A DNA stretch of 64,000 nucleotides from Salinivirgaceae bacterium (GCA_017557605.1 JAFYYJ010000117.1:9366-73365), one strand, 5' to 3'. Positions 27,021 to 64,000 are shown, counted from the stretch's first letter. Numbers and translations are program-made. The notes: a model not told the origin generated them from the letters alone.

Positions 27021-29291
27021 ATGTCACGATTCCGTTTTCTTAGTCTGATTCTGACAATGCTAAGTGTCAATGCCATGGCGCAGCTGTCGGCCAACTCGTG
27101 GCGCGACCACCTCAGCTATCGCGACGGGCGCATAGTGGCTGTGAGCGACTCAAAGGTTTACTGCGCCACCGACCTCAGCCTCTTCTATCTCGACAAAGAC
27201 GACCACTCGCTCAACCACCTGTCGCCCATTGAAGGAATGACTGAAACGGGTGCTGGTTACATTGCCTATTGCGACAAGCTGCACTTGCTTGTGGTGGCCT
27301 ACAACAGCGGCAACATCGACCTTGTGTACGACAACGGCAAGATTATCAACTTGTCTGGACTTAAAGACGCACAGTTCACTACCGACAAACGGACAAACCA
27401 CATCTGCATCGACGGGCACATGGCGTATCTGTCATGTAACTTCGGCATAACGGCTGTCAATCTTGAAAAACGTGAGTTTGCCGACACATACATTCTTGGC
27501 AAAGGCGGCAACCTGTTAAAAATAAACTGCACAGCGGTTTGCGGCGACTATCTTTACGCCTTCACCAATTCAGGACTGATGCGCGGCCGGCTCGACAATC
27601 CGTTCCTCAGCGACCTGAAAAACTGGGAGCTGGTGCCGGGAAGCGACCTCACACATTTCTACAACACAGGTTGCGTATTCAACGGCCAGCTGATTGTGGG
27701 CGAGCGTTTCGCCAATGACTCAACATCGCGTGTGTCAGTTTTCGATGGTGAAAAGATGACTGTGCTGTGGGACAGCCTGCCTATGCTGAAATCGCTGACA
27801 AGCCGCGGAGACTACCTTGTGCGAACCACATACGCCGACATCGACTTGTTCGATACCAAAATGCAAAGCCGAAGCCATTACAGTGACGTTCTGATACAAA
27901 TGGGCATAGCCGACGGCGCGGATAGAATATGGTTCGCTCACTCGTATGACGGACTTGCCTGCATCAACAAAGGACAACACGATTATTACACTCCATTGGG
28001 ACCAGCACGTAACCGTTTCTTCAAGATAAGCTACAACGCCGGCGACATTCTTCTGGCACCCGGTGGAAAAAAAGATATTGGCACAGGCGAGAACAAATGG
28101 CTACCAGCCAACATTTACCGATTTACAGACGGACAATGGACCAGCATCAGCTATTCGGAATATCCTGAAATAGCCAAATGCTTTGATGTGTGCGATTTTA
28201 TCACGCACGGCAACCGCAATCATTTTCTTGCGTCGTCTTGGTTTTCAGGACTGATTGAGTACAACAACGGCACCTACCGCTACATCGACACCACAACGGC
28301 TGGCGTCAACATCTACCGCGTGAGTTCAGGCTGCTACGACTCAAAAGGCAACCTTTGGGTTAACTGTTCACACACAAGCAATTACATAGCCGTCCGCAAA
28401 CCCGACGGTCAATGGTTCAGCTACGCCTACGACCCAAAACTGTCGAACGAGAACCTGGGCAAGATGCTGCGCACCTACAAAGGCGACTTCTGGATAACAA
28501 CACCCAAGGGCACCGGCATCCTTGTCTTCAACACAAACGACACCCCCGAAACCAAAGCTGACGACAACTACACTTATTTTATGCCGACCGACGAGAACGG
28601 AAACGCCTTCAACGCCTACATCAACGATATTGTGGAGGACAACAACGGTCAGCTGTGGGTAGCTTCCGACGAAGGCGTTTATGTGTTCGACCACCCCGAA
28701 CAGGCTCTTGACGGCGAGACAGACGCACGCCGTCCGCAGATGATTGTCGAGGGTTTCTACCAGCCGTTACTCTCAACCGAGCGCGTGACATCAATTGTAA
28801 TTGACGGCGGCAACCGCAAATGGTTCGGCACCGATGGCGGCGGCATCTTCCTTATATCGCCCGATGGCACCAAGCAATTAGCCGAGTACAACACCTCCAA
28901 TTCACCGCTTTTCTCAAACAATGTGCAGTCGATGACACTAGACTATGACAAAGGCATTCTTTACATAATAACTGACATGGGATTGCAGTCGGCCATGATA
29001 TCATCATCAATACCAAAATCAACGTTTTCTGATATTTACGCCTACCCCAACCCTGTTGAACCCGACTATCAGGGCGATGTGCATATACACGGCCTGATGA
29101 ACAATACCACTGTGCGCATAACCGACCTTTACGGCAATCTGGTGTTTGAAACGATGAGCAACGGCGGCGGCGCAACCTGGAACCTGCGCAATATGAGCAA
29201 TCGTCCGGTGGTTACAGGTATCTACCTGATACACTGCGTAACCAAAAATGGTGAAAACCGCGAGGCTGGGACAATTCATGTAGTAAGATAA
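27021..29291 (+). CDS. beta-propeller protein with T9SS C-terminal sorting domain (PorZ-like)
   Basis: 756 aa. Signal peptide LSLILTMLSVNAMAQ, then two-component-regulator-propeller-like repeats. The C-terminal about 85 aa (YAYPNPVEPD...VRITDLYGNLVFE...TGIYLIHCVTKNG) fits a T9SS CTD. Size and architecture match PorZ. Confidence 0.7.
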   Translation: MSRFRFLSLILTMLSVNAMAQLSANSWRDHLSYRDGRIVAVSDSKVYCATDLSLFYLDKDDHSLNHLSPIEGMTETGAGYIAYCDKLHLLVVAYNSGNIDLVYDNGKIINLSGLKDAQFTTDKRTNHICIDGHMAYLSCNFGITAVNLEKREFADTYILGKGGNLLKINCTAVCGDYLYAFTNSGLMRGRLDNPFLSDLKNWELVPGSDLTHFYNTGCVFNGQLIVGERFANDSTSRVSVFDGEKMTVLWDSLPMLKSLTSRGDYLVRTTYADIDLFDTKMQSRSHYSDVLIQMGIADGADRIWFAHSYDGLACINKGQHDYYTPLGPARNRFFKISYNAGDILLAPGGKKDIGTGENKWLPANIYRFTDGQWTSISYSEYPEIAKCFDVCDFITHGNRNHFLASSWFSGLIEYNNGTYRYIDTTTAGVNIYRVSSGCYDSKGNLWVNCSHTSNYIAVRKPDGQWFSYAYDPKLSNENLGKMLRTYKGDFWITTPKGTGILVFNTNDTPETKADDNYTYFMPTDENGNAFNAYINDIVEDNNGQLWVASDEGVYVFDHPEQALDGETDARRPQMIVEGFYQPLLSTERVTSIVIDGGNRKWFGTDGGGIFLISPDGTKQLAEYNTSNSPLFSNNVQSMTLDYDKGILYIITDMGLQSAMISSSIPKSTFSDIYAYPNPVEPDYQGDVHIHGLMNNTTVRITDLYGNLVFETMSNGGGATWNLRNMSNRPVVTGIYLIHCVTKNGENREAGTIHVVR

Positions 29292-32974: not shown

Positions 32975-35900
32975 ATGAAGAAAATATTCTCACACATGAT
33001 GCTCATAGCTGCAATGGCGATAATTTCGGCCAGTGCTATGGCGCAAAACTCATTCAGTTATCAAGCCGTTATTCGCAACAATGGCGAAGTTGTCAGCAAC
33101 CAAGATGTCAGCTTGCTCATCAGTATTTTAAACGGCAGCGATGTCTGCTACCAGGAGACTCAGAAAGTCAAGACCAACGCCTACGGCAACATAAGCGTCA
33201 GCGTTGGTGAGGGCGAACCCAAAACCGGCAGTTTTGCGGCCATTCCGTGGGAGACAATGCAAGTGATGATGCAGGTTGAAGTGAGCACCGACGGCTCGGA
33301 AAATTACGTGAATATGGGGCAAATGCAGATTCAGCCAGTGCCATACGCCATCTACGCGGCTCGCACTGCCACAGTCATACAACCGGCTGTTGCCAGCGAA
33401 GACCCCATTTTTGAAGTCCGCGACAACAATGGCGAGCTGATGTTCGCTGTTTACGAGACCGGCGTAAAGGTTTATGTTGACCAAGACGGCTCAAAAGCCG
33501 CCAAAGCCAAATTTGCCGTGGCCGGACGCTCGACAAGCAAGGGCGAAGAAAACCTTCTGACTATAAACAACGAAGGAACAACTGTTTATGTTGACGAAAG
33601 CCAAAGTAGCAAGGCGGCTAAAAGTAAGTTTGCTGTTGCTGGCCGCTCAGCCGGCAAAACCGACACCGACCTGCTGACTATCGATGGCTCGGGCTCAACC
33701 ATCTATGTCGATGGTGATGGGAAGGCCGCCAAAAGCAAGTTCGCTGTGGCTGGACGTTCGGGCAGAGGCAAAAAATCAGCCAACAACTACTCAATCGACA
33801 ACAACAACTCAACGCTGTATGTCGATTTCAACGATAATGCCGAGGGCAAAGGCGCCCAAGCCGATGTGCTGACCATCGACGGCGGCCAGGCGACATTCTA
33901 CATCGATGAAACAGAAAGTGGCAAGGCCGCTAAAAGCAAGTTCGCCGTGGCAGGACGCTCAGCCGACAAATCGGTGCAGACCGCCTTCGTTATCGACGGA
34001 ACCGGCACACTTATCTATATTGACGACAACGATAATCAAAATGGCAAGGCCGCCAAAAGCACCTTTGCCGTGGCCGGACGCTCAACGGGAAAAGGCAACA
34101 GCAAATTCTTCTCAATCACTCCCGACAGCACCCGCATCTATGTGAACGATGATGTTGACAACACTAACAACGGAAGTCTGTCCGCTGGTTTCGCCATTGT
34201 CGGCATGACACAAAACACTGATTTGCTTTTTATTAACAAAGACAGTACCGTCATAAAGGCCAACACCTACGTTGCCGAAGAGGTGCAAAGCTCCACCGGC
34301 GAGGTTAGTAAACTTGATGTTGTATTTGGCATTTGGAGCGGAAGTTTGAAATATCAGTATACTCATTATGGACCAAGCGATATGTCAACCGATACAATTG
34401 ACTATTACTTCAGCAGTGGCGGCCGCAACAACTTCTACGGCGTTGATGATTCCAAAAATGCGGAATATTATCCTGGACGCGGCAAATATAGTATTGTAAC
34501 ACACTACAATTCATTAGTTGCCGACGCCAACAGTGTTGAGGACTTAAACTGCTTTTGGGAATATATGTCGGATGGGATATGGTATACTGATAATACTTAT
34601 CCATTCGTTCAGCCAATATTCTCAAAGGAAGGCGTCAACACAATGGTAAATAATATCTTTTTCAACAACTTTAGTAGTATATCTGGTGAAGTGTTCAATT
34701 GGGATGCCGTAAACATAACTAACAATGGCACAGCAACCATCAATATTGGCAATCAAGCATACGAAACCGATAAATATACTTACACAACCGACAGTAGCGG
34801 CGCCACAATAATCCTAACATATTATGTGTATAAAGGTATTGTGTTGCAGATAAATAAATTAAAAACGGAGTTTGACGTAACTACAGAAACCATCATTCTC
34901 AAATGTTTCGAATTCAATGAAGGCGAAGCCATACCGTCATTCCTCAGCTGGCTCAAAAACAGCGGTGTCACCAACTTCTCAGGCATGACTAGCGCCTATT
35001 TGGGCGAAGATTATGGCGAAGGGCATTATTTTGTCGACCTTGGCTTGCCGAGCGGCAACATCTGGGCATCGTGCAATGTGGGCGCACCGTCGTCGTACGA
35101 TTTGGGTAGCTATCTGGCTTGGGGCGAGACCGCAGAAAAAGCGGCATACGAGCAAGATGGCTATTCGGTGGCAGAGTTGATTAGCGGTGGCGACAACAAT
35201 AACGACGCCGCTTGGTTGTGGGGAACAAGCGACAAATTTCCAAATGCAAGCGACTGGTGTATGCCAACTAATGCCGACTGGCAAGAGCTTATCGACGAAT
35301 GTGTGTGGATTTGGGTGAAAGACGAGAAAGGCGTGTATGTTTCTGCTTATGACGAATCGCTCCGCGAATACAAAGGGCAAAACCTCGTGATAAACTCTGT
35401 CGGTGAATTACGAGAGGGTTATAATATCGAACTTATAAATTATATTTTCCTACCCGCAACAGGTTTCTTCGACTATTCAAACATCAACAATACCGGCCAA
35501 GGTTACTATTGGTCTAGCAACAAACAAGACTACGGAGTCAACTGCCTTGTATTCGGCGAAAGCTACCAGCAGATTGGCAACAATCCCGGCTACCAAGGCT
35601 TGCAAGTGCGTCCGGTGATGCATAAGAGCAAAGCATATTGGGTAAAAAAGCCTGAAGGAACGCCTACCGGAGAAGCAACCGGCTCATCGAGTAATCCATT
35701 TAGTTCAATAGATGAGGCTTTAAGTACAATAACGAACGATTTTGAACAAAACAGCGACGCGCTAATGACTTATACCATAATGGTTAACGGCGATGTGGAG
35801 CCTGCCGAAATCTCTGCTCCGGAACGAATCAAACAGATAACTCTTTGTGGCGCCAATGGATTATTAAATGGCGAACCGCAAGATGCCATTGTGGGCAACA

Positions 35901-36922
35901 TTAACACTCGTCCGTTAACCGTCTATAACGGAACAGTTAGAATCAAAAACCTGAAACTCACAGGCGGTGGTATCAATCCTGAAAACCAGAATGCACCAAG
36001 TCAGATAGCTGTGGGCGGCGGTTTGTATTTAGATATGTACGCCAAGGTGACACTCGACAGCGGCGCGTTTGTAATGAAAAACGTTGCTTGCACAACAGAC
36101 ATCAGCTATGGAGGCGGTGTGTACGTATTCCGAGGTGGTGAACTTACCATGCTCGGCGGTTCAAAAATCAGCGAAAACCAAGTTGGTGGTGACGGTTATT
36201 ATGGTTGTGGCGCAGGTGTATATATTAATGGTTCTGACTATGGCGGAAAATTAACTATATATGGTGGCGAGATTAGCGAAAACAAGTGCGTTGGCTCATT
36301 TAGCAATGATAAAACTAATACAATTGAGTATTCGAAAGGTGGAGGTGTTTATATCGATGACTTTGCCGAATTTTATATGTATGGTGGACTTATAACAAAA
36401 AACACAATAGAAGAAAGCGCCAGTGCCGCAGAAGGCCAAACAGTAATTCACGGCACGGGTGGAGGTGTATGTCGTGATGCATTTGATAGTAGATATCAGA
36501 TGTTTGGTGGCATGATTACCGATAACACTGCGGCAAATGCGCCTGGATTATATGTTTTTAGCAGTTCCTCCAGCAATTTTGAACCTATTTTTATTGGCGG
36601 CAGCTCATACATCAGCGATATTCATTTTAATTTCAATGAACAATCAGGATGCATCGGCATTGTGTTAAGCGAACCCTTGACAACTAACAAAAACATGTCG
36701 CTTACAGTAGAAAATGTTGGCAGCGATGTGGGTATTAACATATTGACATACTATACTGAAGATAGTAATTATAACGGACAAATTCTTAGAGATGCTAAAA
36801 ACCTATTTACTCTGACAAATGAAAACTACTCAATTGGTGATGAAATTGAGCAAAGCTCTTGGTATGATGGTTATCATAATTATTATCAGTATAGTTTCAT
36901 GTTAGTACCTCAGAGCAAATAG
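32975..36922 (+). CDS. giant surface protein: signal peptide, conserved N-domain, five to six KAAKSKFAVAGRS-type repeats, middle region, FISUMP/DUF1566-like module and C-terminal parallel beta-helix
   Basis: 1315-aa intact ORF, paralogous over its first about 440 aa to ORFs 23954-25402 and 20575-23985. It contains YFVDLGLPSGNIWASCNVG...YLAWGET...CMPTNADWQELI...LPATG...YYWSS...QVRPV, then beta-helix repeats with GGGLY/GGGVY/GAGVY. Confidence 0.85.
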   Translation: MKKIFSHMMLIAAMAIISASAMAQNSFSYQAVIRNNGEVVSNQDVSLLISILNGSDVCYQETQKVKTNAYGNISVSVGEGEPKTGSFAAIPWETMQVMMQVEVSTDGSENYVNMGQMQIQPVPYAIYAARTATVIQPAVASEDPIFEVRDNNGELMFAVYETGVKVYVDQDGSKAAKAKFAVAGRSTSKGEENLLTINNEGTTVYVDESQSSKAAKSKFAVAGRSAGKTDTDLLTIDGSGSTIYVDGDGKAAKSKFAVAGRSGRGKKSANNYSIDNNNSTLYVDFNDNAEGKGAQADVLTIDGGQATFYIDETESGKAAKSKFAVAGRSADKSVQTAFVIDGTGTLIYIDDNDNQNGKAAKSTFAVAGRSTGKGNSKFFSITPDSTRIYVNDDVDNTNNGSLSAGFAIVGMTQNTDLLFINKDSTVIKANTYVAEEVQSSTGEVSKLDVVFGIWSGSLKYQYTHYGPSDMSTDTIDYYFSSGGRNNFYGVDDSKNAEYYPGRGKYSIVTHYNSLVADANSVEDLNCFWEYMSDGIWYTDNTYPFVQPIFSKEGVNTMVNNIFFNNFSSISGEVFNWDAVNITNNGTATINIGNQAYETDKYTYTTDSSGATIILTYYVYKGIVLQINKLKTEFDVTTETIILKCFEFNEGEAIPSFLSWLKNSGVTNFSGMTSAYLGEDYGEGHYFVDLGLPSGNIWASCNVGAPSSYDLGSYLAWGETAEKAAYEQDGYSVAELISGGDNNNDAAWLWGTSDKFPNASDWCMPTNADWQELIDECVWIWVKDEKGVYVSAYDESLREYKGQNLVINSVGELREGYNIELINYIFLPATGFFDYSNINNTGQGYYWSSNKQDYGVNCLVFGESYQQIGNNPGYQGLQVRPVMHKSKAYWVKKPEGTPTGEATGSSSNPFSSIDEALSTITNDFEQNSDALMTYTIMVNGDVEPAEISAPERIKQITLCGANGLLNGEPQDAIVGNINTRPLTVYNGTVRIKNLKLTGGGINPENQNAPSQIAVGGGLYLDMYAKVTLDSGAFVMKNVACTTDISYGGGVYVFRGGELTMLGGSKISENQVGGDGYYGCGAGVYINGSDYGGKLTIYGGEISENKCVGSFSNDKTNTIEYSKGGGVYIDDFAEFYMYGGLITKNTIEESASAAEGQTVIHGTGGGVCRDAFDSRYQMFGGMITDNTAANAPGLYVFSSSSSNFEPIFIGGSSYISDIHFNFNEQSGCIGIVLSEPLTTNKNMSLTVENVGSDVGINILTYYTEDSNYNGQILRDAKNLFTLTNENYSIGDEIEQSSWYDGYHNYYQYSFMLVPQSK

Positions 36923-46792: not shown

Positions 46793-49714
46793 ATGAAACG
46801 CATTTTCACAATTCTATTTGCCGCAATGCTTACCGGACAGACGTGGGCAACCGATTATGATTTTAAAATTGACAACGTATGCTACAGCACTTGGTTTGGG
46901 GATGCATACGTCGAATGTGAGAATAGTTCCGACGACTATGCCAACAACTATTCCGGCCTGACAACTGTTACAATACCAGATACTATAGAGTACGATGGCG
47001 ACAAATATCCAGTTATAGGTATTTCCAGGAGCGCCTTTAAAAATTGCAGCAGCCTGACATCAATAACCCTACCCAATACTATTCATAATATTCGAGAATA
47101 TGCTTTCGAAGGCTGTAGTAGTTTGGAATCAGTTGTTATTCCGAGCTCAGTTACAAGTTTGGGTGAGAATGTATTTTGTAATTGCACCAGTCTGGCGTCT
47201 GTGACTTTGCCCGACACAATTACTTATATTTCCGCAGCTGCATTTGGTAATTGCAGCAGTCTGACATCCATTGAAATACCGAATACAGTTACGTTTATAG
47301 GCAACAGCGCATTTTCGGGAAGCGGATTGACTTCTATCGAAATACCGAAATCGGTTACGGAAATAGCAAGTTTTGCATTTAAAGAGTGCGATGGGTTGGA
47401 AACTATTACGATTCCGGCGACTGTTGAAAAAGTACAGTCCTGGGTGTTCCAAGGATGCGATAATTTGACAGTCAATTGCTGTGCAACTTCAATTCCAGCG
47501 GGTTGGAGTACTTATTGGAACGACTACAACATACCTTACAATTTAGGAAGTTGTGGAGAAGGAAGGACGTGGACTGTCAATCTTTCTGCCAACAACAGCT
47601 CGTACGGAAGCGTGAGCGGCGGCGGCACTTATGCCGATGGCTCAACCATTACAATCACAGCAACGCCAGCATCGGGTTACAAATTTGTAAAATGGAGCAA
47701 CGACTTGACAACTGCAACGGCAACCATAACCGTAACATCCGATTTGAATCTTGTGGCAGAATTTGCAGAAATATCGCTTCAATATGAAATCACAGGCAGT
47801 AATACGGTTCAGGTTGTACATTCAGAAGACTATAAAAATCTGACAGATGTTGTGATACCAGAAACAGTTGAAATTGAGGGAAAAACTTATTCTGTTGCTC
47901 AAATTGGTGATTCTGCATTTTATAATTGCAGTAAACTATCGTCACTGACTATACCAGAAACAGTTATAAGCATTGGTAGACATGCGTTTGCAAATTGCAG
48001 CAGTCTGACTTCGATAGCCATTCCTAATTCGGTTTGTGCTTACAGTTATGAAGGTTTATTCAAAGGGTGTTCATCGCTTCAGTCAATAACGTTGCCGTTT
48101 GTTTTCGGTCCGTTCGGAGAAATCTTTGGTTCGGAATATTACGAAGGCTGTATCGAAACAAAACAAGTCCGCTACGAAGGAAATATGAATGAAGAAGAAT
48201 ACACATCATATATACCATCATCGCTCAAGACGGTGACAATAAATGGTGGTGTTATTTGTAATGGCGAATTCCGCAACTGCAGAAATATAGAGTCAATCTT
48301 CATCTCCGGTACAACAACATCAATTGGATGGCATGCTTTTGCCAATTGCAGCAACTTGAAATCATTGACTATTTCCGAATCAGTCTCTTACATTGCCGAT
48401 GCTGCGTTCAACGATTGTGAGAGTATCGAGACTCTGAGTTACAACACTAACGCCGTCACTCAGCAATTTCGAGAAAAAAAAGCGCTTAAAACAATAAATA
48501 TTGGTGAATCGGTTACCAAAATCAGCAACTATGCATTTTTCCTTTGTTCTAATTTGACATCGGTAACTATTCCAAATTCAGTAGAATCCATTGGGGAATC
48601 TGCTTTCGACAATTGTTGCAACTTGAAAAATGTTTCCGTTCCAAGCTCTGTAAAAACAATCGGCGATGATGCATTTTGTCTTGTGGTCAACGTTATGTAT
48701 AGTGGAACAGCAAGCGGTAGTCCGTGGAAGGCTTGCAACATCAACGGAACAATTGACGGTGATTTTATCTATGCCGATAAAAAACTGACAAAACTTGTAG
48801 CATACATTGGTCAGGGAGGCGATGTTGTCATTCCTGAATCAGCAAAAAGCATTGGCGATTATGCATTCTCAAACACAGATATAACCTCGGTTATATTTCA
48901 CAACGGTGTTGATTCCATAGGATGGGGTGCGTTTAGTGGCTGTACGGGTCTAGCTTCTGTAGTTATTCCCGAAGGTGTTACTGGCATTGATTACTATGCA
49001 TTCGAAAATTGTACAAATCTGAAATCAATATCTATTCCTAATTCAGTAACATATGTCCCAGATGATGTGTTTGAAGGGTGCAATAGTCTTCAATACAACG
49101 AATATGGTAATGCTTTGTACTTAGGTAACGATAAAAATCCGTATTTATGGCTGACAACAGCAAAGTCAACAGATATAACGACTTGTACTATAAATGATAA
49201 TTGCCAACATGTTATGAATGAGGCATTTATGGGTTGTAAAAAACTCGAGTCTGTGAATATCCCGAATTCTGTGAAAACCATCGGTTGGTATGCATTTGAT
49301 GGATGCGACAAATTCACAACAGTAACCATACCCCAAACCGTTGAATTCGTCAGCAGCTATGCGTTCGGACATTGTGAAAACCTGACAGTGATTTATTGTG
49401 GTGCAAGTGAACGTCCTGATGACTGGGCTTACAACTGGTATTATTACGATTACGACGACAGCGACAAATACCAAATAGTATGGAGTGCTATAACCCCTAT
49501 CACCGAATCCGCCGCCAACACAGTGAACATCTATGCCTTCGGCAACAAAATTGTGGTTGAAAATGCCACGGATGAAATTCGTGTATATAATGCAATGGGC
49601 AAATTAATCTGCAGGGACGTGGCATGCCGCGTCTGCGCAGAAATAACCGTCAACGCCACAGGTGTTTACATTGTTAAAACCGGCAGCGCGGTGAAACGTG
49701 TTGTGGTGAATTAA
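46793..49714 (+). CDS. BspA-type leucine-rich repeat surface protein with T9SS C-terminal sorting domain
   Basis: 973 aa with signal peptide ILFAAMLTGQTWA. It has many LRR_5-like units (AF..CSSLTSI.IPN.V..IG..AF) and an Ig-like repeat (YGSVSGGGTYADGSTITITATPASGYKFVKWSN). The CTD reads VNIYAFGNKIVVENATDEIRVYNAMGKLI...GVYIVKTGSAVKRVVV. Confidence 0.85.
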   Translation: MKRIFTILFAAMLTGQTWATDYDFKIDNVCYSTWFGDAYVECENSSDDYANNYSGLTTVTIPDTIEYDGDKYPVIGISRSAFKNCSSLTSITLPNTIHNIREYAFEGCSSLESVVIPSSVTSLGENVFCNCTSLASVTLPDTITYISAAAFGNCSSLTSIEIPNTVTFIGNSAFSGSGLTSIEIPKSVTEIASFAFKECDGLETITIPATVEKVQSWVFQGCDNLTVNCCATSIPAGWSTYWNDYNIPYNLGSCGEGRTWTVNLSANNSSYGSVSGGGTYADGSTITITATPASGYKFVKWSNDLTTATATITVTSDLNLVAEFAEISLQYEITGSNTVQVVHSEDYKNLTDVVIPETVEIEGKTYSVAQIGDSAFYNCSKLSSLTIPETVISIGRHAFANCSSLTSIAIPNSVCAYSYEGLFKGCSSLQSITLPFVFGPFGEIFGSEYYEGCIETKQVRYEGNMNEEEYTSYIPSSLKTVTINGGVICNGEFRNCRNIESIFISGTTTSIGWHAFANCSNLKSLTISESVSYIADAAFNDCESIETLSYNTNAVTQQFREKKALKTINIGESVTKISNYAFFLCSNLTSVTIPNSVESIGESAFDNCCNLKNVSVPSSVKTIGDDAFCLVVNVMYSGTASGSPWKACNINGTIDGDFIYADKKLTKLVAYIGQGGDVVIPESAKSIGDYAFSNTDITSVIFHNGVDSIGWGAFSGCTGLASVVIPEGVTGIDYYAFENCTNLKSISIPNSVTYVPDDVFEGCNSLQYNEYGNALYLGNDKNPYLWLTTAKSTDITTCTINDNCQHVMNEAFMGCKKLESVNIPNSVKTIGWYAFDGCDKFTTVTIPQTVEFVSSYAFGHCENLTVIYCGASERPDDWAYNWYYYDYDDSDKYQIVWSAITPITESAANTVNIYAFGNKIVVENATDEIRVYNAMGKLICRDVACRVCAEITVNATGVYIVKTGSAVKRVVVN

Positions 49715-57242: not shown

Positions 57243-57250
57243 TACTTTTG
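57243..57250 (+). promoter_or_regulatory. Bacteroides-type -7 promoter box (TACTTTTG) ahead of the CheR-CheB-PP2C-SiaBC operon
   Basis: Exact TAnnTTTG match 57 nt upstream of the ATG at 57307, in the only sizeable gap (159 nt) before the operon. It is the same octamer as at the tRNA-Gln promoter. Confidence 0.45.
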
Positions 57251-57306: not shown

Positions 57307-58149
57307 ATGGTTACAAACGAAGATGCAGCGAGGTTAATTACAGCCATCAAGACGTCGTCGACGTACGATTTCACCGACTACTCCGACAAGTCATTCTGTC
57401 GGCGAATCGAGAAAATCCTGCTCGACAACAACATGGATTTAAACCAATTAATCCTGAAAATAAGCAAAGACAAGGCTTTCCTGGAGCAAACTGTAAAAGA
57501 CATCACTGTAAATACAACCGAACTTTTCCGCAATCCGGAAATGTGGCAGACACTGCGTTACCACATTCTTCCAAAGCTAAGGAAAAACAAATCGATATTC
57601 ATCTGGCATGCTGGCTGCTCAAGCGGACAGGAGATATACTCGATGCTCATCCTGCTTAATGAAATGGGATTGTTCGACCAGGCCAAAGTGTTCGCCACCG
57701 ATATCAACACCGATATGCTTGAGGCAGCCAAAGCTGGCACCTATAAATATAGGTTCAACCTCGGCTATCTTGACAATTTCGACAAGGTTATCAAAGAGAA
57801 TCCGTACAACTTCGAGGAGAAAATTGATGTGCCGTACGAGAAATATTTCGACATCGACAAGGTGAAAGACACCATACAGATGAAGCCGTTCCTGCGCGAG
57901 AAGGCCGTTTTCCGCAAACACGACCTGGTGAAGGACGGCAACGTCTTCTACTCAAAATTCGACCTGATATTGTGCCGTAACGTGATTATCTATTTCAACA
58001 ACAGGCTGCAGAGTCGTGTCATCGACATGTTCAACAACAGCTTGAGCCACGACGGCTACCTTATCTTAGGCTCGCATGAGAGCATTCTTGGCTCATCGGC
58101 CAACAATTTTGAGCGTTCAAAAAGTTTCTACAAGAAAAAAACGATATAG
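57307..58149 (+). CDS. CheR-type protein-glutamate O-methyltransferase
   Basis: 280 aa with a CheR N-terminal helical region (TELFRNPEMWQTL). SAM-binding motifs appear intact (IWHAGCSSGQEIYSMLILL, VFATDINTDMLEAAKAGTY, ILCRNVIIYF). Confidence 0.85.
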   Translation: MVTNEDAARLITAIKTSSTYDFTDYSDKSFCRRIEKILLDNNMDLNQLILKISKDKAFLEQTVKDITVNTTELFRNPEMWQTLRYHILPKLRKNKSIFIWHAGCSSGQEIYSMLILLNEMGLFDQAKVFATDINTDMLEAAKAGTYKYRFNLGYLDNFDKVIKENPYNFEEKIDVPYEKYFDIDKVKDTIQMKPFLREKAVFRKHDLVKDGNVFYSKFDLILCRNVIIYFNNRLQSRVIDMFNNSLSHDGYLILGSHESILGSSANNFERSKSFYKKKTI

Positions 58150-58151
58150 TT

Positions 58152-58979
58152 ATGGTAGATAATATAGGAATAGTAGATACAAGGAACATTATCAGTGCCA
58201 TAGCTGAGAAATTTGGCATCGACATGTCCGACTATGCCTCTACCATACTGCGTAGAAGGCTGGTTCACACAATAAACGCATACACTTGCCACTCGGCCGA
58301 CGATTTCATCGACAAGGTGAAACGTGGCGCAATCGATGTCGACGACTTCCTTTATGAAATGGCAGTTGAAACGACCGAGATTTTCCGCGACCCGTCGCTG
58401 TGGCGCGAGCTGCGCGACCGCTACCTGCCCGAAGTTTGCCGCACCCCCGACTGCCAGATTTGGATGCCGGGAATAACAACAGGCGACGAACTATACACAC
58501 TGGAGATAGTGCTTGCAGAATCGGGATTGCAAAACAAGGCCAAAGTGGTTGCCGGATGCCCGTCGAACAAGCACATCGAAAACATCAAGGACGGCGGACT
58601 GTACGACCCGAAGAAAATCGAGGTTAGCGAGGCCAACTACACACGCTACGTGGGCAAGTCGCAGTTCAACTCGTACTACACCATGGTCGACAATCACGCC
58701 AAAATGAAGAACGAGCTGCTGGCAAACGCCACAATATATCAGAAAGACATATTGAAAACCGAAGCCAACAAGCAATACCGGATGATTATCTACCGCAACA
58801 CTCTGCTGCAATTCAACATACCGCTCTACGAGAAGGTCATCCGCAAGCTGACAGAAAGCCTTGCCATTGGCGGATATCTGATTATCGGCAACATGGAGAC
58901 GCTGGAATATTCAGAGACCGGTAAGAAGATGCAAGTTGTTAACGAGAATGAGAAAATTTATAAAAAACGAATAGACTGA
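58152..58979 (+). CDS. CheR-like paralog with degenerate SAM-binding motifs
   Basis: 275 aa, collinear with the preceding CheR (TEIFRDPSLWRELR). The motifs read IWMPGITTGDELYTLEIVL, VVAGCPSNKHIENIKDGGLY and IIYRNTLLQF. Confidence 0.75.
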   Translation: MVDNIGIVDTRNIISAIAEKFGIDMSDYASTILRRRLVHTINAYTCHSADDFIDKVKRGAIDVDDFLYEMAVETTEIFRDPSLWRELRDRYLPEVCRTPDCQIWMPGITTGDELYTLEIVLAESGLQNKAKVVAGCPSNKHIENIKDGGLYDPKKIEVSEANYTRYVGKSQFNSYYTMVDNHAKMKNELLANATIYQKDILKTEANKQYRMIIYRNTLLQFNIPLYEKVIRKLTESLAIGGYLIIGNMETLEYSETGKKMQVVNENEKIYKKRID

Positions 58980-59542
58980 TGAGCGATTACAAAGCCATAA
59001 TGATAGGAGGTTCGGCGGGCAGCTTTCAGGTTGTTTCGCATATAATTGCCGCGCTGCCGGCAAATTATCCGCTGCCAATACTTATGTGTCTGCACCGGCT
59101 CAAACACATACGCTCAGGCTTTGTCGAGGCCCTGTCGATTAAATCGAAACTGCCGATAATCGAGCCTCATGACAAGGAGCCGCTCAAACCGGGCCGCATC
59201 TATCTGGCTCCGGCCAACTATCACATGTACATCGAGCTTGGCAACCGCTTTGCACTGTCGACAGAAGATGTCATCAACCACTCGCGTCCGTCTATCGACC
59301 TGTCGTTCTTCTCCGCCTCGTACAATTTCAAGAAGAAACTTGTGGGCATCATCCTGAGCGGAGCCAACAAAGACGGAGCAATGGGACTCAAGAGCGTGAC
59401 CGACAACGGCGGACTGACAATTGTCCAAGACCCGAAAGAGTGCCAGGTGCCGACAATGACACAGGCCTCGCTCAACGCAACAAAAGTGGATTATGTGTTC
59501 AGCACAAAACAGATTATAGATTTTTTACTTAAATTAGCCTAA
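58979..59542 (+). CDS. stand-alone CheB-type protein-glutamate methylesterase domain (no receiver domain)
   Basis: 187 aa with IGGSAGSFQ (Ser), MCLHRLKH (His) and ILSGANKDGAMGL (Asp) at CheB catalytic-triad positions, plus IYLAPANYHM. The start overlaps the previous stop (TGATG). Confidence 0.85.
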   Translation: MSDYKAIMIGGSAGSFQVVSHIIAALPANYPLPILMCLHRLKHIRSGFVEALSIKSKLPIIEPHDKEPLKPGRIYLAPANYHMYIELGNRFALSTEDVINHSRPSIDLSFFSASYNFKKKLVGIILSGANKDGAMGLKSVTDNGGLTIVQDPKECQVPTMTQASLNATKVDYVFSTKQIIDFLLKLA

Positions 59543-59545
59543 TCT

Positions 59546-60298
59546 ATGAACGAGTTGCTCAAATACAGAAAAGGGATTATCAGGCTGACCATTATATTAA
59601 TATTGGTAGAGGTTGCCGCCGTCGGCCTTCTGCTTGCGGCCTCCCCAAGTTTCGAACGCGGATACATCTCGCTTATCCTGTTGATTGTCATTCTTGTACA
59701 GATACTGCTGACCGCACGGCTCGGCATGGCCGGCAACAAGACTGCAGTAATCTTGATACAAGAGGAACAGGAGCGCGCTATGGCCGCATCCGATGAGCAA
59801 CAGATTGAGCATGCCGCACAAAGCGCTAACGACATTGTCGAGACAAAATTCGACATCAACGACATCACCAAGCTGATAAAAAAAGCCGACAACTGGAAAG
59901 ATTATGGCGACTCAATTCTATACTCACTGTCGAAACAGATAGACATTGCCGTGGGCATGGTTTACCAATACGCCAACGAGGAGTTCTACGCAGCCGCCAC
60001 ATTCGCCTACTACAACGACGAGGCACCCCGCAACTTCAAGATTGGCGAAGGCATATCGGGACAGGTTGCCAAAGACAAAAAAGCCATGTTCCTGAACGAC
60101 TTACCGAGCAAAAGTCTGATGATAGTTTCGGGTCTGGGACAGATTGAAGTGAACAATTTAGCAATTATTCCAATTTTAAAGGATGATAATGTACTTGGAT
60201 TAATAGAAATAGCTACCTTTAAGCCCTTTGATAATTGGTTTATAAACAAGATAGACGAAATTTCAAACGCTATAGGTGGCATGGCACCAGCACTATAA
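59546..60298 (+). CDS. two-TM membrane protein with a Q/E/A-rich juxtamembrane linker and a cytoplasmic GAF domain
   Basis: 250 aa with two hydrophobic helices (residues about 11-32 and 41-60). The GAF-like C-terminus (FKIGEGISGQVAKDKKAMFLNDLP...LAIIPILKDDNVLGLIEIATF) is paralogous to the GAF domain of the next gene. Confidence 0.75.
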   Translation: MNELLKYRKGIIRLTIILILVEVAAVGLLLAASPSFERGYISLILLIVILVQILLTARLGMAGNKTAVILIQEEQERAMAASDEQQIEHAAQSANDIVETKFDINDITKLIKKADNWKDYGDSILYSLSKQIDIAVGMVYQYANEEFYAAATFAYYNDEAPRNFKIGEGISGQVAKDKKAMFLNDLPSKSLMIVSGLGQIEVNNLAIIPILKDDNVLGLIEIATFKPFDNWFINKIDEISNAIGGMAPAL

Positions 60299-60310
60299 TA
60301 CGGAAGCGAA

Positions 60311-62938
60311 ATGGATACATTTATTGAAAAAATAAAGAAATTGTTCGTTTACAAGGTCGGCGAGAAAATCAACTACACTCCCGCCCTTATAAGCGTTGGT
60401 GTCGTTCTGCTCATCTTATCGTGGGTGCTGGGATTCATGAAAGCCGACGCCACAGTATCGCTGAGCGGACTGGCCGAATTGCACAAAAACGCTCCGTCGT
60501 ACTATCTGATTGACCTTCTGCCGATAATACTTGGCATTTTGGGCTACGCCTTCACCAGCTCGCATCAGGAGACAATACAACAGCTCGAAGACCAGATTAC
60601 ACAAAAAGACAGCGTCATAAACAAAAACGCGCACTTTGCAAAGAAAATCGGTGAGGGTGACTTCTCGGCAAACGACGAGGAGATTGACGACAACGACATT
60701 CTTGGTCACTCGCTGAAAAAGATGCGCGAGAACCTTGCAATGACCAACGAGAAAGAAAAGGAGCTCAACTGGATAGCCAAAGGAAAGGATAACATATCGA
60801 ACATCCTCCGTTTGCAGAACGACCTTGGCAATCTGTCTTACCTGACACTTGTTGAACTGATTAAATACATCGATGTTATCCAGGGTGCGTTCTACATCTA
60901 CAACGAAACCGACAACACTTTGGAGAACACGGCCACTTACGCCTACAACCGCCGCAAATATCTCGATACAAAGTTCCAGATTGGCGAAGGCCTTGTTGGT
61001 CAGTGCGCCTACGAAATGGATGTGATATTCCGCCGCGAGATACCGGAAGATTTCATCACCATTACCAGCGGCATATTGGGCGACCAAAAACCAACATCGT
61101 TGCTGCTTGTTCCGCTCATCACCGATGAGAAACTGCAAGGCGTGCTCGAATTCGCATCGTTGAAAGACGATATCAACGAACTGAAAATCAGATTCATCAA
61201 AGAACTTAGCGACATTATAGCTCGCACAATCTTCAACCTGAAAGTCAACACTCGGACTGAGAAACTGCTGAAAGACGCGCAGGAGATGACCGAGGAACTT
61301 CAGGAGAATGAGGAGCAACTGCGCCAGAACGCCGAGGAGATGCGCGCAACACATGAGGAACTGGAGAAAACCAACTCGAACCTGCAGACACAAATCCGCG
61401 AGGTTGAGAATGCGCAGAAACGTCAGCACGCATTGTTGGAGAACGCATCCGAAATCATCTCGATTTACGACGAGGAGATGAAGCTGAAATACATAAGTCC
61501 TTCAGTAACAAACATCTATGGTTACACCATACAGGAGATGATTGAAGGCAAAGACCTTGACCGACTGACCGCTAAAGACGCCAAAGAATATACCGAAACA
61601 TTCGGCAAACTGGCCGAGAAAGCCAATTCGTCGGCAACCATACAATACACCTACATGCGTAAGGACGGCCAGAAAATCTACATCGAATCAACTGGCCGCA
61701 ACCTGCTCGATGACCCTGCAATCAACGGTATCATCATCAACTCGCGCGATATTACCGAACGCAAACGCGCCGAGAAAGAGGAGCGCATGAAGAGTAAGAT
61801 GCAGTCGCTGTCGGAGAATTCACTCGATATGATTCTTCGTATCGGCACCAACGGACAGTTCTTCTACGCCAACCCAATGGTGAAGACATTCACCGAGAAC
61901 GAACCGAGCGAGCTGATAAATAAAAACTTAAGCGAAGCCAAATTCAACGAGACAATCAAGAATTTCTTTGTTGAAGCTGTCAAAACCGTCAACTCGACAA
62001 AAGAGAAACACGACGCCGAGGTTACATTCCCGACACACTTTGGCGACCGAATAATGCAGGTGAACGCCATTCCTGAGTTCAGCGACGACGGCAAAGAACT
62101 GGAAACCATTCTGTTTGTCGCACACGACATCACCGAGCAGAAAATGGTTGAAATGGAGATTCAGGAGAAGAACAAGGCCATTACCGAAAGTATCAACTAC
62201 GCAAAACGCATACAAACAGCCATACTTCCGAACACGAAATTTGTGCAGGAATTCCTGCCCAACTCGTTCATCTTCTACCGTCCGAAGGATGTGGTCAGCG
62301 GTGACTTCCCGTGGTTCTTCAAAAAAGGCGACGACATCTTCATTGCTGCCGTCGATTGCACTGGCCACGGCGTTCCTGGCGCGTTGCTGTCGTTCATCGG
62401 CTACTTCACGCTGAACAATGTTGTCGACCACTACGACAACCTGAATGCCGGCGAGGTTCTTGACAAGCTGCACGAAGGCGTGCGCACCACTTTGAAACAG
62501 GACCGCATCGACACCGACGCACGCGACGGTATGGACATTGCACTGTGCAAAATAAACTTGCAGAAAAATATACTTGAATTTGCAGGTGCTCACAGACCTC
62601 TTTATTTACTGAGAGGCAACGAGTTAACTCAATACAAAGGCAGTCACAAGGCCATTGGTGGCATACCATTAGGCAAAAAACCTGAAGCGGATTTTGAAAA
62701 TCATTTAATAAATTTGCAAGCTAAAGACAGAGTATTCTTCTTCTCTGACGGCCTGCCAGACCAAGTTAGCGGCGAGACGGGCAGAAAATATCAGGCGAGC
62801 AGAATACGCGACTTGCTTGTTGAGCACTATGACGTAGAGATTTTCGATTATGAGAACATAATCTACGAAGACTTTATGGCATATAAAGGTGATTACAAGC
62901 AAGTTGACGACATACTATTAATTGGAATTGAATTTTAA
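60311..62938 (+). CDS. 2-TM HAMP-GAF-coiled coil-PAS-PAS-PP2C (SpoIIE family) Ser/Thr phosphatase, SiaA-like
   Basis: 875 aa with two TM helices. HAMP-like segment: AKKIGEGDFSAN...DILGHSLKKMRENL. GAF: FQIGEGLVGQCAYEMD...LLLVPLITDEKLQGVLEFAS. E/Q-rich coiled coil. Two PAS-like modules (ISIYDEEMKLKYISPSVTNIYGYT and ILRIGTNGQFFYANP). PP2C motifs: VSGDFPWFF, VDCTGHGVPGA, FSDGLPDQ, VDDILLIGIEF. Confidence 0.85.
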   Translation: MDTFIEKIKKLFVYKVGEKINYTPALISVGVVLLILSWVLGFMKADATVSLSGLAELHKNAPSYYLIDLLPIILGILGYAFTSSHQETIQQLEDQITQKDSVINKNAHFAKKIGEGDFSANDEEIDDNDILGHSLKKMRENLAMTNEKEKELNWIAKGKDNISNILRLQNDLGNLSYLTLVELIKYIDVIQGAFYIYNETDNTLENTATYAYNRRKYLDTKFQIGEGLVGQCAYEMDVIFRREIPEDFITITSGILGDQKPTSLLLVPLITDEKLQGVLEFASLKDDINELKIRFIKELSDIIARTIFNLKVNTRTEKLLKDAQEMTEELQENEEQLRQNAEEMRATHEELEKTNSNLQTQIREVENAQKRQHALLENASEIISIYDEEMKLKYISPSVTNIYGYTIQEMIEGKDLDRLTAKDAKEYTETFGKLAEKANSSATIQYTYMRKDGQKIYIESTGRNLLDDPAINGIIINSRDITERKRAEKEERMKSKMQSLSENSLDMILRIGTNGQFFYANPMVKTFTENEPSELINKNLSEAKFNETIKNFFVEAVKTVNSTKEKHDAEVTFPTHFGDRIMQVNAIPEFSDDGKELETILFVAHDITEQKMVEMEIQEKNKAITESINYAKRIQTAILPNTKFVQEFLPNSFIFYRPKDVVSGDFPWFFKKGDDIFIAAVDCTGHGVPGALLSFIGYFTLNNVVDHYDNLNAGEVLDKLHEGVRTTLKQDRIDTDARDGMDIALCKINLQKNILEFAGAHRPLYLLRGNELTQYKGSHKAIGGIPLGKKPEADFENHLINLQAKDRVFFFSDGLPDQVSGETGRKYQASRIRDLLVEHYDVEIFDYENIIYEDFMAYKGDYKQVDDILLIGIEF

Positions 62939-62957
62939 CTAAAAAAGATATACAGCT

Positions 62958-63533
62958 ATGGATGGAAATACCTTTTTAGAATTTGTCTATAGTTTTAACG
63001 ATTCGATGGAAAGCAATGATGTGAAACTCGTTTACAAAGGCGAGATAACGCATCAGGTTACAAAAGCTTTCACCTCGCTTACCGAGACCAACATGATGGT
63101 CGACGAAGAGCCTAACTCGGTGCAGAAGAAGGTTTTCCATGTGATTGTGGAGTTCCTTCAGAACATAAGCAAGCATGCTGACCACTTACCGGAAGAGGCT
63201 GAAAAAGAGGAAGGAAGCGGGGTATTTCTGCTATGCCGCAACGACAGCAACTACATTATAACAACCGGAAACGTGCTGCAAAAAAGCAAAGAGCCTGTTA
63301 TCAGCGAAATATTAGACCGCATCAACGTGCTGGACAAAGACGGGCTGAAGGAGTTGTACAAACAGCAAATAAAAGAAGGTAAGCTGTCGGACAAAGGCGG
63401 AGCCGGACTGGGATTCATTGATATTGCCAAGAAGACTGGTAATCCACTGAATTACAAATTTATACCTATCGCCGATGATTATTCATTCTTTATGATATCA
63501 TCAACTATTTCAAGAACTCAAAATTTCGAATAA
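62958..63533 (+). CDS. SiaB-type GHKL protein kinase (partner-switch kinase)
   Basis: 191 aa. The pattern LVYKGEITHQV...VFHVIVEFLQNISKHAD...YIITTGNV...LKELYKQQIKEG...KGGAGLGFIDIAKKTGNPL closely parallels Pseudomonas SiaB-family kinases as I recall them. Confidence 0.8.
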   Translation: MDGNTFLEFVYSFNDSMESNDVKLVYKGEITHQVTKAFTSLTETNMMVDEEPNSVQKKVFHVIVEFLQNISKHADHLPEEAEKEEGSGVFLLCRNDSNYIITTGNVLQKSKEPVISEILDRINVLDKDGLKELYKQQIKEGKLSDKGGAGLGFIDIAKKTGNPLNYKFIPIADDYSFFMISSTISRTQNFE

Positions 63534-63551
63534 ACATAATTCTTATTTACT

Positions 63552-63935
63552 ATGGAGGTTATTAAAATTGTTGGAACAGACGACACCCCGAGTGTAACTT
63601 TAGATGTTGCAAATGAGATATTTGAAATATCAGGGCGCTCATTGCCTGAAGATGTTGCAGTATTCTATGAACCAATTCTCGACTGGATTGACCGCTACTC
63701 GGAAGAAGCAACCGGAAAAACCATATTCAATTTCAAACTGGTTTACTTCAACACCGCCTCGTCGAAAATGATTCTCGACATCCTTCTGAAACTGGAAGAG
63801 ATGCACGAAGCAGGAAAAGATGTGCTTATCAGATGGCACTATCCTGAAGACGACGAAGATATGGAAGAGGCAGGCGAAGAATATGCTGACATTGTTGATG
63901 TTCCGTTCGAACAGATAAGCTATTCGCTGGATTAA
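63552..63935 (+). CDS. SiaC-type regulatory phosphoprotein (DUF1987)
   Basis: 127 aa. The sequence IVGTDDTPSVTLDVANEIFEISGRSLPEDVAVFYEPILDWI...FNFKLVYFNTASSKMILDILLKLEE...IRWHYPEDDEDMEEAGEEY is the DUF1987 pattern, including the Thr in the YFNT(A/S)SSK motif. Confidence 0.8.
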   Translation: MEVIKIVGTDDTPSVTLDVANEIFEISGRSLPEDVAVFYEPILDWIDRYSEEATGKTIFNFKLVYFNTASSKMILDILLKLEEMHEAGKDVLIRWHYPEDDEDMEEAGEEYADIVDVPFEQISYSLD

Positions 63936-63966
63936 TCAGAAAATCAGCAAGAAAACAGTACTGTAG

Positions 63967-64000
63967 ATGAGTGAAGAGATTCTAAAAGCCTTAATGCAAC
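63967..64000 (+). CDS. 5' end of the next co-directional ORF (MSEEILKALMQ...), truncated by the window end; possible output gene of the operon
   Basis: An ATG lies 31 nt after the SiaC-like stop and the frame is open to the window end. Only 11 codons are visible, so no function can be called. Confidence 0.3.
   Translation, partial: MSEEILKALMQ

Follow-up and report, generated by a model that had tools for sequence, protein, structure and literature searches.

A conserved ten-gene operon in Bacteroidales linking CheR/CheB-type methylation enzymes to a SiaABC-like partner switch and a putative ABCG-type exporter

Near the 3' end of a 64,000-nt stretch of DNA from a Salinivirgaceae bacterium (GCA_017557605.1 JAFYYJ010000117.1:9366-73365), here called the window, lies the beginning of the operon that is the subject of this report. 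The host is a rumen Bacteroidales bacterium, and the window is near-identical (100%) to a Salinivirgaceae metagenome-assembled genome (MAG) from water-buffalo rumen (L012). Seven co-directional open reading frames (ORFs) occupy positions 57307-63935, with junctions of 2, -1, 3, 12, 19 and 18 nt, and after a gap of 31 nt an eighth ORF starts at 63967 (ATG AGT GAA GAG...) and is cut by the end of the window. An earlier description of this DNA, made from the bare sequence and referred to below as the sequence-only reading, had given the span and spacings of the seven ORFs, the truncated eighth and a -7 box in the 159-nt gap upstream, and all of these were reproduced. It had further proposed that CheR- and CheB-type enzymes are joined here to a SiaABC-type partner switch in a hybrid not described before; full-text searches of the literature turned up neither a CheR/CheB–SiaABC system nor the helical motif that is considered below. 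The features of the operon that fall within the window are the following.

57243-57250, + strand: candidate Bacteroidetes-type -7 box, TACTTTTG, a consensus match only and a putative promoter element
57307-58149, + strand: gene 1, CheR-type protein-glutamate O-methyltransferase, predicted active (PF01739, 5.4e-41)
58152-58979, + strand: gene 2, CheR′ paralogue in which the D154 equivalent is missing (AGCPS) (PF01739, 9.3e-20, and CheR_N)
58979-59542, + strand: gene 3, receiver-less CheB methylesterase/deamidase catalytic domain (PF01339, 1.6e-47)
59546-60298, + strand: gene 4, two transmembrane (TM) segments, a variable linker and a GAF domain (GAF_2, 2.8e-10)
60311-62938, + strand: gene 5, membrane GAF–helix–PAS–PAS–PP2C (SpoIIE) phosphatase, SiaA analogue (Pfam)
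61277-61375, + strand: proposed methyl-accepting helix, gene 5 residues 323-355, AQEMTEELQENEEQLRQNAEEMRATHEELEKTN (motif conservation)
62327-62932, + strand: PP2C/SpoIIE catalytic domain of gene 5, residues 673-874 (PF07228, 4.1e-17)
62958-63533, + strand: gene 6, SiaB-family protein kinase (NF038262, 162.5 bits; PF19788, 1.4e-40)
63552-63935, + strand: gene 7, SiaC/DUF1987 phosphoprotein, T68 codon at 63753-63755 (PF09345, 1.6e-41)
63967-64000, + strand: start of gene 8, a 1067-aa TerB-like/ABC/ABC-2 protein (MSEEILKALMQ matches L008 10416-13619)

These genes had been taken to form a single operon of seven or eight genes. The single unit stands, and its length does not, as longer contigs of the same species give ten genes. 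Beyond the SiaC gene these contigs carry gene 8, which proves to encode a TerB-like/ABCG-type exporter rather than an MCP (methyl-accepting chemotaxis protein), CheA or CheW, followed by gene 9 for a lipoprotein and gene 10 for a small secreted protein. A terminator with a 14-bp stem lies 3' of gene 10 (L008 15053-15085), and no terminator-like sites were found on the + strand within the ten-gene unit; the transcription unit is therefore taken to comprise all ten genes. Annotation of the seven window proteins with profile hidden Markov models upheld every family assignment made for them, HAMP aside.

Three genes for methylation enzymes open the operon. Gene 1 encodes a CheR (PF01739, 140.6 bits) in which the equivalents of E. 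coli CheR R98, the G-x-G-E-E motif, D154 (‘ATDIN’) and RNVxIYF (‘CRNVIIYF’) are at least 90% conserved among 74 orthologues, bearing out the intact S-adenosylmethionine (SAM) motifs ascribed to it. The second enzyme, CheR′, keeps R98, and none of its orthologues retains the D154 equivalent (the consensus there reads ‘ascpS’, and the window has AGCPS). In CheR and in class I methyltransferases the Asp at this position is a ribose-binding residue. CheR′ has a complete CheR fold as judged from an AlphaFold2 (AF2) model, which has a predicted local distance difference test score (pLDDT) of 89 and whose best matches in the PDB are the CheR structures 5FTW, 1BC5 and 1AF7 (template-modelling scores of 0.67-0.83). 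The loss of D154 throughout the orthologues makes it plausible that CheR′ is a ‘pseudo-CheR’ and possibly non-catalytic. The description of gene 2 as a CheR paralogue with eroded motifs is thus correct as to the lost residue, and the non-catalytic status goes no further than plausible. Gene 3 encodes a CheB of 187 aa that consists of the catalytic domain alone (PF01339, 161.9 bits), with no REC domain detected by Pfam. The equivalents of its catalytic triad Ser164/His190/Asp286 (in GGSAGS, LHRLKH and GANKDG) are at least 90% conserved among orthologues, so that the receiver-less CheB of the sequence-only reading holds in every part. It belongs to a clade of stand-alone CheB proteins of 184-215 aa that is spread across Bacteroidota, with 3,899 index matches at E<=1e-10. 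There is precedent for such an enzyme in the F3-class chemosensory systems of Campylobacterota, where CheB without a REC domain likewise serves in a methylation system; those systems differ in retaining CheA, CheV, CheW and MCPs and in having flagellar motility under their control (PMC9239204).

Two membrane proteins follow. Gene 4 sits between the CheB and phosphatase genes in all loci, and its product has two hydrophobic TM segments and a moderately conserved GAF domain, much as had been described. The Q/E/A-rich linker that formed part of the same description is not conserved among orthologues, where conservation is low throughout the TM and linker regions, and in other lineages gene 4 encodes a GAF protein of 163-169 aa with no such linker. 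For gene 5, Pfam detects GAF_2, two PAS domains and SpoIIE/PP2C; the protein also has two hydrophobic TM segments, and the PP2C blocks VVSGDFPWF and DCTGHGVPGALLS are invariant among orthologues. The architecture originally read from the sequence is retained with the exception of HAMP, for which Pfam gives no match, not even in a scan of the segment on its own at E<=1; detectable HAMP domains are confined to the separate receptors described below. Against the NCBIfam SiaA equivalog the phosphatase scores 170.7 bits, with the PP2C part only, where the cut-off is 700.

The next two genes supply the remainder of a partner switch, and both were correctly named from the outset. Gene 6 exceeds the cut-off for the SiaB-family kinases (NF038262 SiaB_fam_kinase, 162.5 bits against 85), matches DUF6272 (PF19788) at 1.4e-40 and aligns to the P. 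aeruginosa SiaB structure 6KKO_A at 3.6e-15; at 83.4 bits it does not reach the cut-off of 225 for the SiaB equivalog. Gene 7 matches PF09345 at 141.2 bits (cut-off 24.5) and scores 89.9 bits against the NCBIfam SiaC equivalog, below the cut-off of 150, and is for this reason assigned to the SiaC family without being an equivalog. In its alignment with P. aeruginosa SiaC (6KKO_C, 1e-18), LVYFNTASSK lies over LLYLNTSSIK, so that T68, the mapped phosphosite of P. aeruginosa SiaC (PMC7647112), is matched; this residue is invariant in 58 orthologues.

Comparison with SiaABCD of P. aeruginosa (PMC7647112, PMC8457831) brings out both the kinship and the differences. A membrane PP2C phosphatase, a SiaB-family kinase and a DUF1987/SiaC protein occur in the same order in both systems, the T68 acceptor is aligned, and they likely share the logic by which SiaC, when unphosphorylated, binds the protein encoded just after it. 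The known partner of SiaC is a diguanylate cyclase, and the structural study of SiaC remarks on the wide occurrence of DUF1987 proteins and on their probable role in regulating neighbouring proteins (PMC8457831). The operon described here has no SiaD, and no GGDEF domain was found by Pfam in its ten genes; a TerB-like/ABCG exporter follows SiaC instead. The sensor part of the phosphatase is GAF–helix–PAS–PAS, whereas that of SiaA is HAMP only, the cut-offs for the SiaA, SiaB and SiaC equivalogs are not reached, and CheR, CheR′, CheB and the GAF protein are added upstream.

Gene 8 encodes 1067 aa, in which Pfam detects a TerB N-domain, ABC_tran at residues 268-419 and then ABC2_membrane at 614-802. 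Its score against TIGR00955 is 262 bits (1e-77), below the cut-off of 736, and its nearest PDB sequences are Cdr1/PDR pumps, ABCA transporters and ABCG1/2/5/8. On these similarities gene 8 is assigned to the ABCG/White-type half transporters, in which the nucleotide-binding domain (NBD) comes first. Its first ~20 residues, where the TerB-like region starts, are ~99% conserved. The 305-aa product of gene 9 bears a lipobox and the 142-aa product of gene 10 a signal peptide; neither has matches in Pfam, NCBIfam or the PDB sequences. The locus was also considered as a known anti-phage defence system and this was rejected, as PADLOC yields generic ABC ATPase matches only. The proposed control of the exporter by Ser/Thr phosphorylation signalling has a counterpart in Rv1747 of Mycobacterium tuberculosis, an ABCG-like exporter with FHA domains that is regulated by Ser/Thr kinases. 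Both are NBD-first ABC-2/ABCG-type exporters that carry an N-terminal regulatory domain and are associated with Ser/Thr phosphorylation signalling. In gene 8 this domain is TerB-like, with no match to FHA, and the proposed regulator is a SiaC-type adaptor, whereas Rv1747 is directly phosphorylated.

The linkage of these genes was examined by scanning an alignment of CheR′ homologues against one genome per species, which gave 209 matches. The best 80 were inspected with ±10 kb of flank, and their ORFs, called simply, were compared to the ten operon proteins and to E. coli Tar, Tap, CheA, CheW, CheY, CheZ, CheR and CheB. All 80 loci are colinear: 58 contain genes 1-10 complete and 22 are cut by contig ends, with no violation of the order even at the lower limit of 35% CheR′ identity. 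The core order CheR–CheB–GAF–PP2C–SiaB–SiaC is also found in MAGs of Cytophagales, Flavobacteriales and Tenuifilaceae, on a 1.5-Mb metagenome contig and on several other metagenome contigs. The CheR–CheB–PP2C–SiaB–SiaC linkage seen first in the window is accordingly no peculiarity of one genome, since it recurs in other orders of Bacteroidota, and that a conserved, dedicated system exists we regard as close to certain. In the Cytophagales MAG the phosphatase bears a dCache sensor and an ABC gene follows the module. At the Flavobacteriales locus L173 (108-12730) a REC gene precedes the module, a small Cyt-b5-like ORF stands between the CheB and GAF genes, and a PKD/CHU_C gene encodes more than 1850 aa.

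Could the methylation enzymes nevertheless belong to an ordinary chemosensory pathway that is split across the genome, with CheR and CheB serving MCPs encoded elsewhere and their position in the operon meaningless? Some Bacteroidetes do encode chemoreceptors (PMC7390727), and one locus carrying the receptor motif discussed below (L164) has a canonical MCP–CheR–CheB(REC) cluster as a chance neighbour. Such an account must contend with the colinearity of 80 out of 80 loci, which is maintained across orders and down to 35% identity with junctions that overlap or span 2-3 nt, and with a CheB that comes from a distinct, short, receiver-less clade. No MCP, CheA or CheW was found within ±10 kb of the operon loci inspected (L009-L091, L173-L181). 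Within the 64 kb of the window, where the sequence-only reading had seen no MCP, CheA, CheW or CheY, phmmer searches with the E. coli Che proteins likewise found no homologues; an E. coli-based screen could miss very divergent MCPs, and the Pfam labels on called genes, which cover most of the window, agree with it. Tar-like matches among the metagenome loci with the motif are confined to L109, L161 and L164, none of which bears the operon. The window does contain, at 27021-29291 (+ strand), a gene of PorZ type, whose product belongs to the type IX secretion system. The organism can on this basis be credited with type IX secretion machinery, as would suit a member of the Bacteroidota that lives without flagella, and the 64 kb show no flagellar genes. 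A split chemosensory pathway is in our estimation highly improbable.

On which protein, then, would CheR and CheB act? In MCPs, reversible methylation falls on the second residue of a Glu/Gln pair, and sites encoded as Gln are deamidated by CheB. The phosphatase contains a comparable region between its GAF and first PAS domains, in which the block N-E-E-[E/Q]-L-R-Q-N-A-E-E-M-R-A-T-[H/Q]-E-E-L is invariant or at least 90% identical among 66-72 orthologues. The block is conserved although the overall identity of the phosphatases drops to ~50%, and its conservation equals that of the PP2C catalytic motifs. Four Glu/Gln pairs, E328-E329, E335-Q336, E342-E343 and E349-E350, follow one another at an exact spacing of seven residues, a geometry like that of E. 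coli Tar (EQ295, EE302, EQ309). Only one position of the block varies, and it falls on the second member of a pair: it is E in 49 sequences and Q in 17, never D or K, with at least nine independent switches on a neighbour-joining tree; in the wider family the E/Q alternation recurs one heptad upstream (E75/Q15). EEMRAT is the sole match among the ten operon proteins to [EQ][EQ]xxA[ST], the classical Glu-Glu-X-X-Ala-Ser/Thr pattern. In a single-sequence AF2 prediction, residues 288-393 form one continuous helix with a pLDDT of 75-94 over the motif; the GAF–helix–PAS model is poor globally (pLDDT 48), and the helix assignment alone is used. Taken from conservation and geometry, it is probable that this helix is the methyl-acceptor for CheR and CheB, and E329, Q336, E343 and E350 are proposed as candidate acceptor or deamidation residues.

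The substrate had been sought in the phosphatase or in its GAF partner, and these data favour the first and speak against the second. The GAF partner is the most obvious member of a set of alternatives in which another operon protein is methylated, whether the linker of gene 4, SiaB, SiaC or the TerB-like domain of the exporter. The gene 4 linker (QEEQERAMAASDEQQIEHAAQSAN) has a composition like that of MCP methylation regions, and gene 4 always comes directly after CheB. Its TM and linker regions, however, are among the least conserved parts of the operon, and the linker is missing from the 163-169-aa homologues, for which reasons it was rejected as the methylation site. No [EQ][EQ]xxA[ST] site occurs in genes 1-4 or 6-10, and methylation of an operon protein other than the phosphatase is considered very unlikely.

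The helix of the phosphatase is one member of a much larger family. In 27 of the 80 loci an extra gene between CheR and CheR′ encodes a membrane protein with the architecture (weak HAMP)–GAF–helix–PAS(–PAS), which has no output domain and carries the motif QEEEMRQNMEELxATQEE. A HMMER search of 1.84 billion representatives gave 9,436 motif matches, 1,468 of them at <=1e-30, and a 71-aa motif profile run against a 5.8-billion-protein index showed the motif to be widespread (fragments of <=125 aa only, apparently owing to a length filter). The label ‘PF28175’ on two of the fragments was set aside as a weak coiled-coil match to T4SS_LegC2C7 that gives no description of the motif. The best 56 of the 9,436 proteins include 55 with GAF, 48 with PAS, 10 with sCache and 8 with HAMP; PAS_10 matches seven of them, and in one motif protein a weak PAS_10 match lies directly after the motif. 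SpoIIE is present in one only of these 56, and no other classical output family is listed for them. Receptors of this kind resemble MCPs in mostly having no output domain and must therefore signal through partners. Among the proteins P0355-P0504, up to nine tandem modules of GAF/PAS and EE-heptad helix occur (P0355, 1989 aa), with essentially no output domains, a repetitive design that is unusual for a receptor.

The genomic surroundings of these receptors were studied in a metagenome scan with a general-motif profile, which gave at least 600 matches; the loci examined were picked by motif similarity from among the matches listed. Of the motif genes with at least 1.2 kb of downstream sequence, 7 out of 65 (~11%) have CheR and/or receiver-less CheB directly downstream on the same strand, as do three further motif genes on short contigs. 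As with MCP genes, only a minority of motif receptors adjoin adaptation enzymes. Loci L096, L106, L160 and L172 run on into GAF–PP2C–SiaB–SiaC–ABC. Three systems with a separate canonical receptor were examined. In L096 and L172 the copy of the motif in the phosphatase has degenerated (‘REKLLENALEMQETQEEI’ and ‘RQQLLNNAKAMELAQEEL’, respectively), and in L160 it is largely kept despite that receptor; in systems without a separate receptor the phosphatase motif is intact. In four other metagenome loci (L146, L148, L151, L156), short-tailed motif receptors of ~550-570 aa are each accompanied by a divergent SiaC-like gene (76-84 bits), with CheR and CheB not in view on the contigs; this pairing hints at a direct relationship between receptor and SiaC in another lineage. 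A broader proposal would see in these proteins a phylum-wide Bacteroidota class of non-MCP methyl-accepting (Cache–)HAMP–GAF–‘EE-heptad helix’(–PAS) receptors, mostly without outputs, that are adapted by a dedicated receiver-less CheB and CheR and signal through PP2C/SiaB/SiaC to an ABCG exporter, not through CheA/CheW. We advance this class tentatively, as a possibility that falls a little short of an even chance.

For the operon itself, the full chain that we favour is that of a signalling operon independent of CheA, CheW and MCPs, in which methylation tunes a partner switch that in turn acts on an exporter; as read from gene content and conservation, the chances lie somewhat on its side. 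Under this scheme, CheR would methylate and CheB demethylate the second residue of the four heptad pairs (E329, Q336, E343, E350), and CheB would deamidate Q336. The acceptor residues would occupy heptad position ‘g’ and flank a marginal coiled-coil core in which a is L or M and d is polar (N, T or S). Because these ‘g’ positions lie beside a core with polar d residues, neutralization of charge should alter the packing of the helix and the coupling of GAF to PAS–PP2C. The methylation state would set the gain or baseline of the phosphatase toward phosphorylated SiaC, working against the SiaB kinase, and the partner switch would thereby acquire a slow, reversible layer of adaptation or memory. 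The extra output-less HAMP–GAF–helix(–PAS) receptor beside CheR, present in about a third of the genomes and also in more distant lineages, probably feeds the same phosphatase. Unphosphorylated SiaC, by analogy with SiaC–SiaD in Pseudomonas, would bind and regulate the ABCG exporter, most plausibly through its TerB-like N-domain.

Several observations weigh against parts of this chain. Some ~89% of motif-bearing genes do not adjoin CheR or CheB, and for that reason the motif could be a purely structural signalling helix running from GAF to PAS. The strict Alexander–Zhulin pattern [ASTG][ASTG]xx[EQ][EQ]xx[ASTG][ASTG] is unmatched in the helix on its upstream side, and no C-terminal pentapeptide for the tethering of CheR is evident on the short-tailed receptors. 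At the distant loci L106 and L115 an Asp-less, CheR′-type enzyme is the only one beside the receptor; the status of ‘pseudo-CheR’ is uncertain on account of these two systems, and either the Asp-less type is active or the gene for the active enzyme lies at another place. A system whose CheB has no receiver domain offers no evident route for feedback, and any feedback would need conformation-dependent access to the sites. Some Bacteroidetes, as mentioned above, do have chemoreceptors, and MCP and CheA genes may lie elsewhere in these genomes. As for the exporter, gene order is the sole link between SiaC and the ABC gene, and in one Flavobacteriales MAG (L173) it is the giant PKD/CHU_C protein, not an ABC gene, that comes after SiaC.

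The first of these objections can be carried to a full alternative, in which the EE-heptad helix is merely structural and CheR, CheR′ and CheB have been recruited for scaffolding, for deamidation only, or to act on a small molecule or another protein. That most motif proteins lie away from CheR/CheB would suit it, as would the capacity of coiled-coil linkers to be strongly conserved and the absence from CheR′ of the SAM-binding Asp. It is harder to reconcile with the strong conservation of all catalytic residues in the gene 1 CheR and in CheB, and the E/Q-only toggle at the second position of a pair is difficult to explain by packing alone. The immediate adjacency of CheR/CheB to 11% of the motif genes is also far over any background, and the complementary degeneracy of the motif between receptor and phosphatase points the same way. 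A purely structural helix is in our judgement unlikely.

A further alternative accepts methylation and the partner switch as proposed but assigns SiaC a target other than the exporter, so that the exporter and the two secreted proteins are co-transcribed cargo. It draws on the replacement of the ABC gene by the giant PKD/CHU_C gene in L173, and on the nature of the known SiaC partner as a diguanylate cyclase (PMC8457831). To be set against this, an ABC gene comes after SiaC in all Bacteroidales loci, in Cytophagales and in several metagenome lineages, the N-terminal domain of the exporter is nearly invariant, and there is no GGDEF protein in the operon to take the part of SiaD. This alternative is given some weight, though we think it rather unlikely, and regulation of the exporter is kept as the output in the favoured chain.

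Two further known arrangements bear comparison with the proposed methylation–partner switch. In the Wsp pathway, WspA is the MCP, WspC the CheR, WspF the CheB, WspE the CheA and WspR the output. Alternative-function pathways of this type share with the present operon a CheR/CheB-type methylation of glutamates tied to an output other than motility, and the heptad-spaced EE/EQ pairs of the candidate acceptor resemble the methylation helices of MCPs. The operon differs in having no MCP signalling domain, CheA, CheW or CheY and a CheB without a receiver, and its transmitter is a PP2C/kinase partner switch where theirs is a His–Asp phosphorelay. The second arrangement is that of the CheB–CheR fusion sensor histidine kinases, which have an EEL-heptad coiled coil after the CheR domain. 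In these, too, PAS-type sensors are joined to methylation enzymes in a setting other than classical chemotaxis, but the fusion kinases are single polypeptides that end in a histidine kinase, whereas the operon encodes separate proteins and a Ser/Thr switch. Because SiaB and SiaC are not equivalogs, SiaD is absent and the hallmarks of chemosensory systems (MCP, CheA, CheW and the CheB receiver) are missing, the operon is best described as a new combination of known parts.

Other features of the window and of its counterparts in related contigs may be recorded briefly. Strain-variable insertions flank both sides of the operon in contigs of the same species from different samples (L001-L008), with the ten-gene operon itself unchanged: between the M24 peptidase and PQ-loop genes there are CoiA-like or HSDR_N genes, a 514-aa unknown gene, or nothing, and downstream of the HD-domain gene there are HepT/MNT or ParE-type toxin–antitoxin pairs. 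Tandem paralogous TPR–SpoIIE (PP2C) proteins of 738 and 734 aa are encoded at 5396-7612 and 7626-9830 (+ strand), and the EE-heptad motif is not present in either. A 226-aa protein with a faint TerB match (~9958-10638, - strand) comes after this pair and makes a second PP2C/TerB-like neighbourhood. LRR_5 repeat proteins of 1136 and 973 aa are encoded at 20575-23985 (- strand) and 46793-49714 (+ strand), the latter with Flg_new_2; these genes coincide with the two stretches of lowest G+C content (0.40 at 20-24 kb and 0.39 at 48-50 kb) and are possibly islands of acquired surface proteins. The ORF at 32975-36922 (+ strand) encodes 1315 aa, has no Pfam family on record and is flanked by a CTP_transf_like gene and a Bac_transf (sugar transferase) gene.

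Reversible methylation of glutamates by CheR and CheB is the textbook mechanism of sensory adaptation, and to our knowledge it has so far been tied to arrays of MCP, CheA and CheW. If the chain proposed here is correct, adaptation or memory would be a transferable module, open to combination with other types of transmitter. It would explain the many ‘orphan’ CheR and CheB genes that are called chemotaxis genes in non-flagellated Bacteroidota, and SiaC-family adaptors would gain a new class of target, an ABCG exporter with a TerB-like domain. It would also give a function to the thousands of output-less GAF/PAS sensors with the QEEEMRQNMEELxATQEE motif, which are represented in 9,436 clusters. 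Should the broader receptor class prove real as well, it would constitute a second, independent use of adaptation by glutamate methylation in bacterial signalling.

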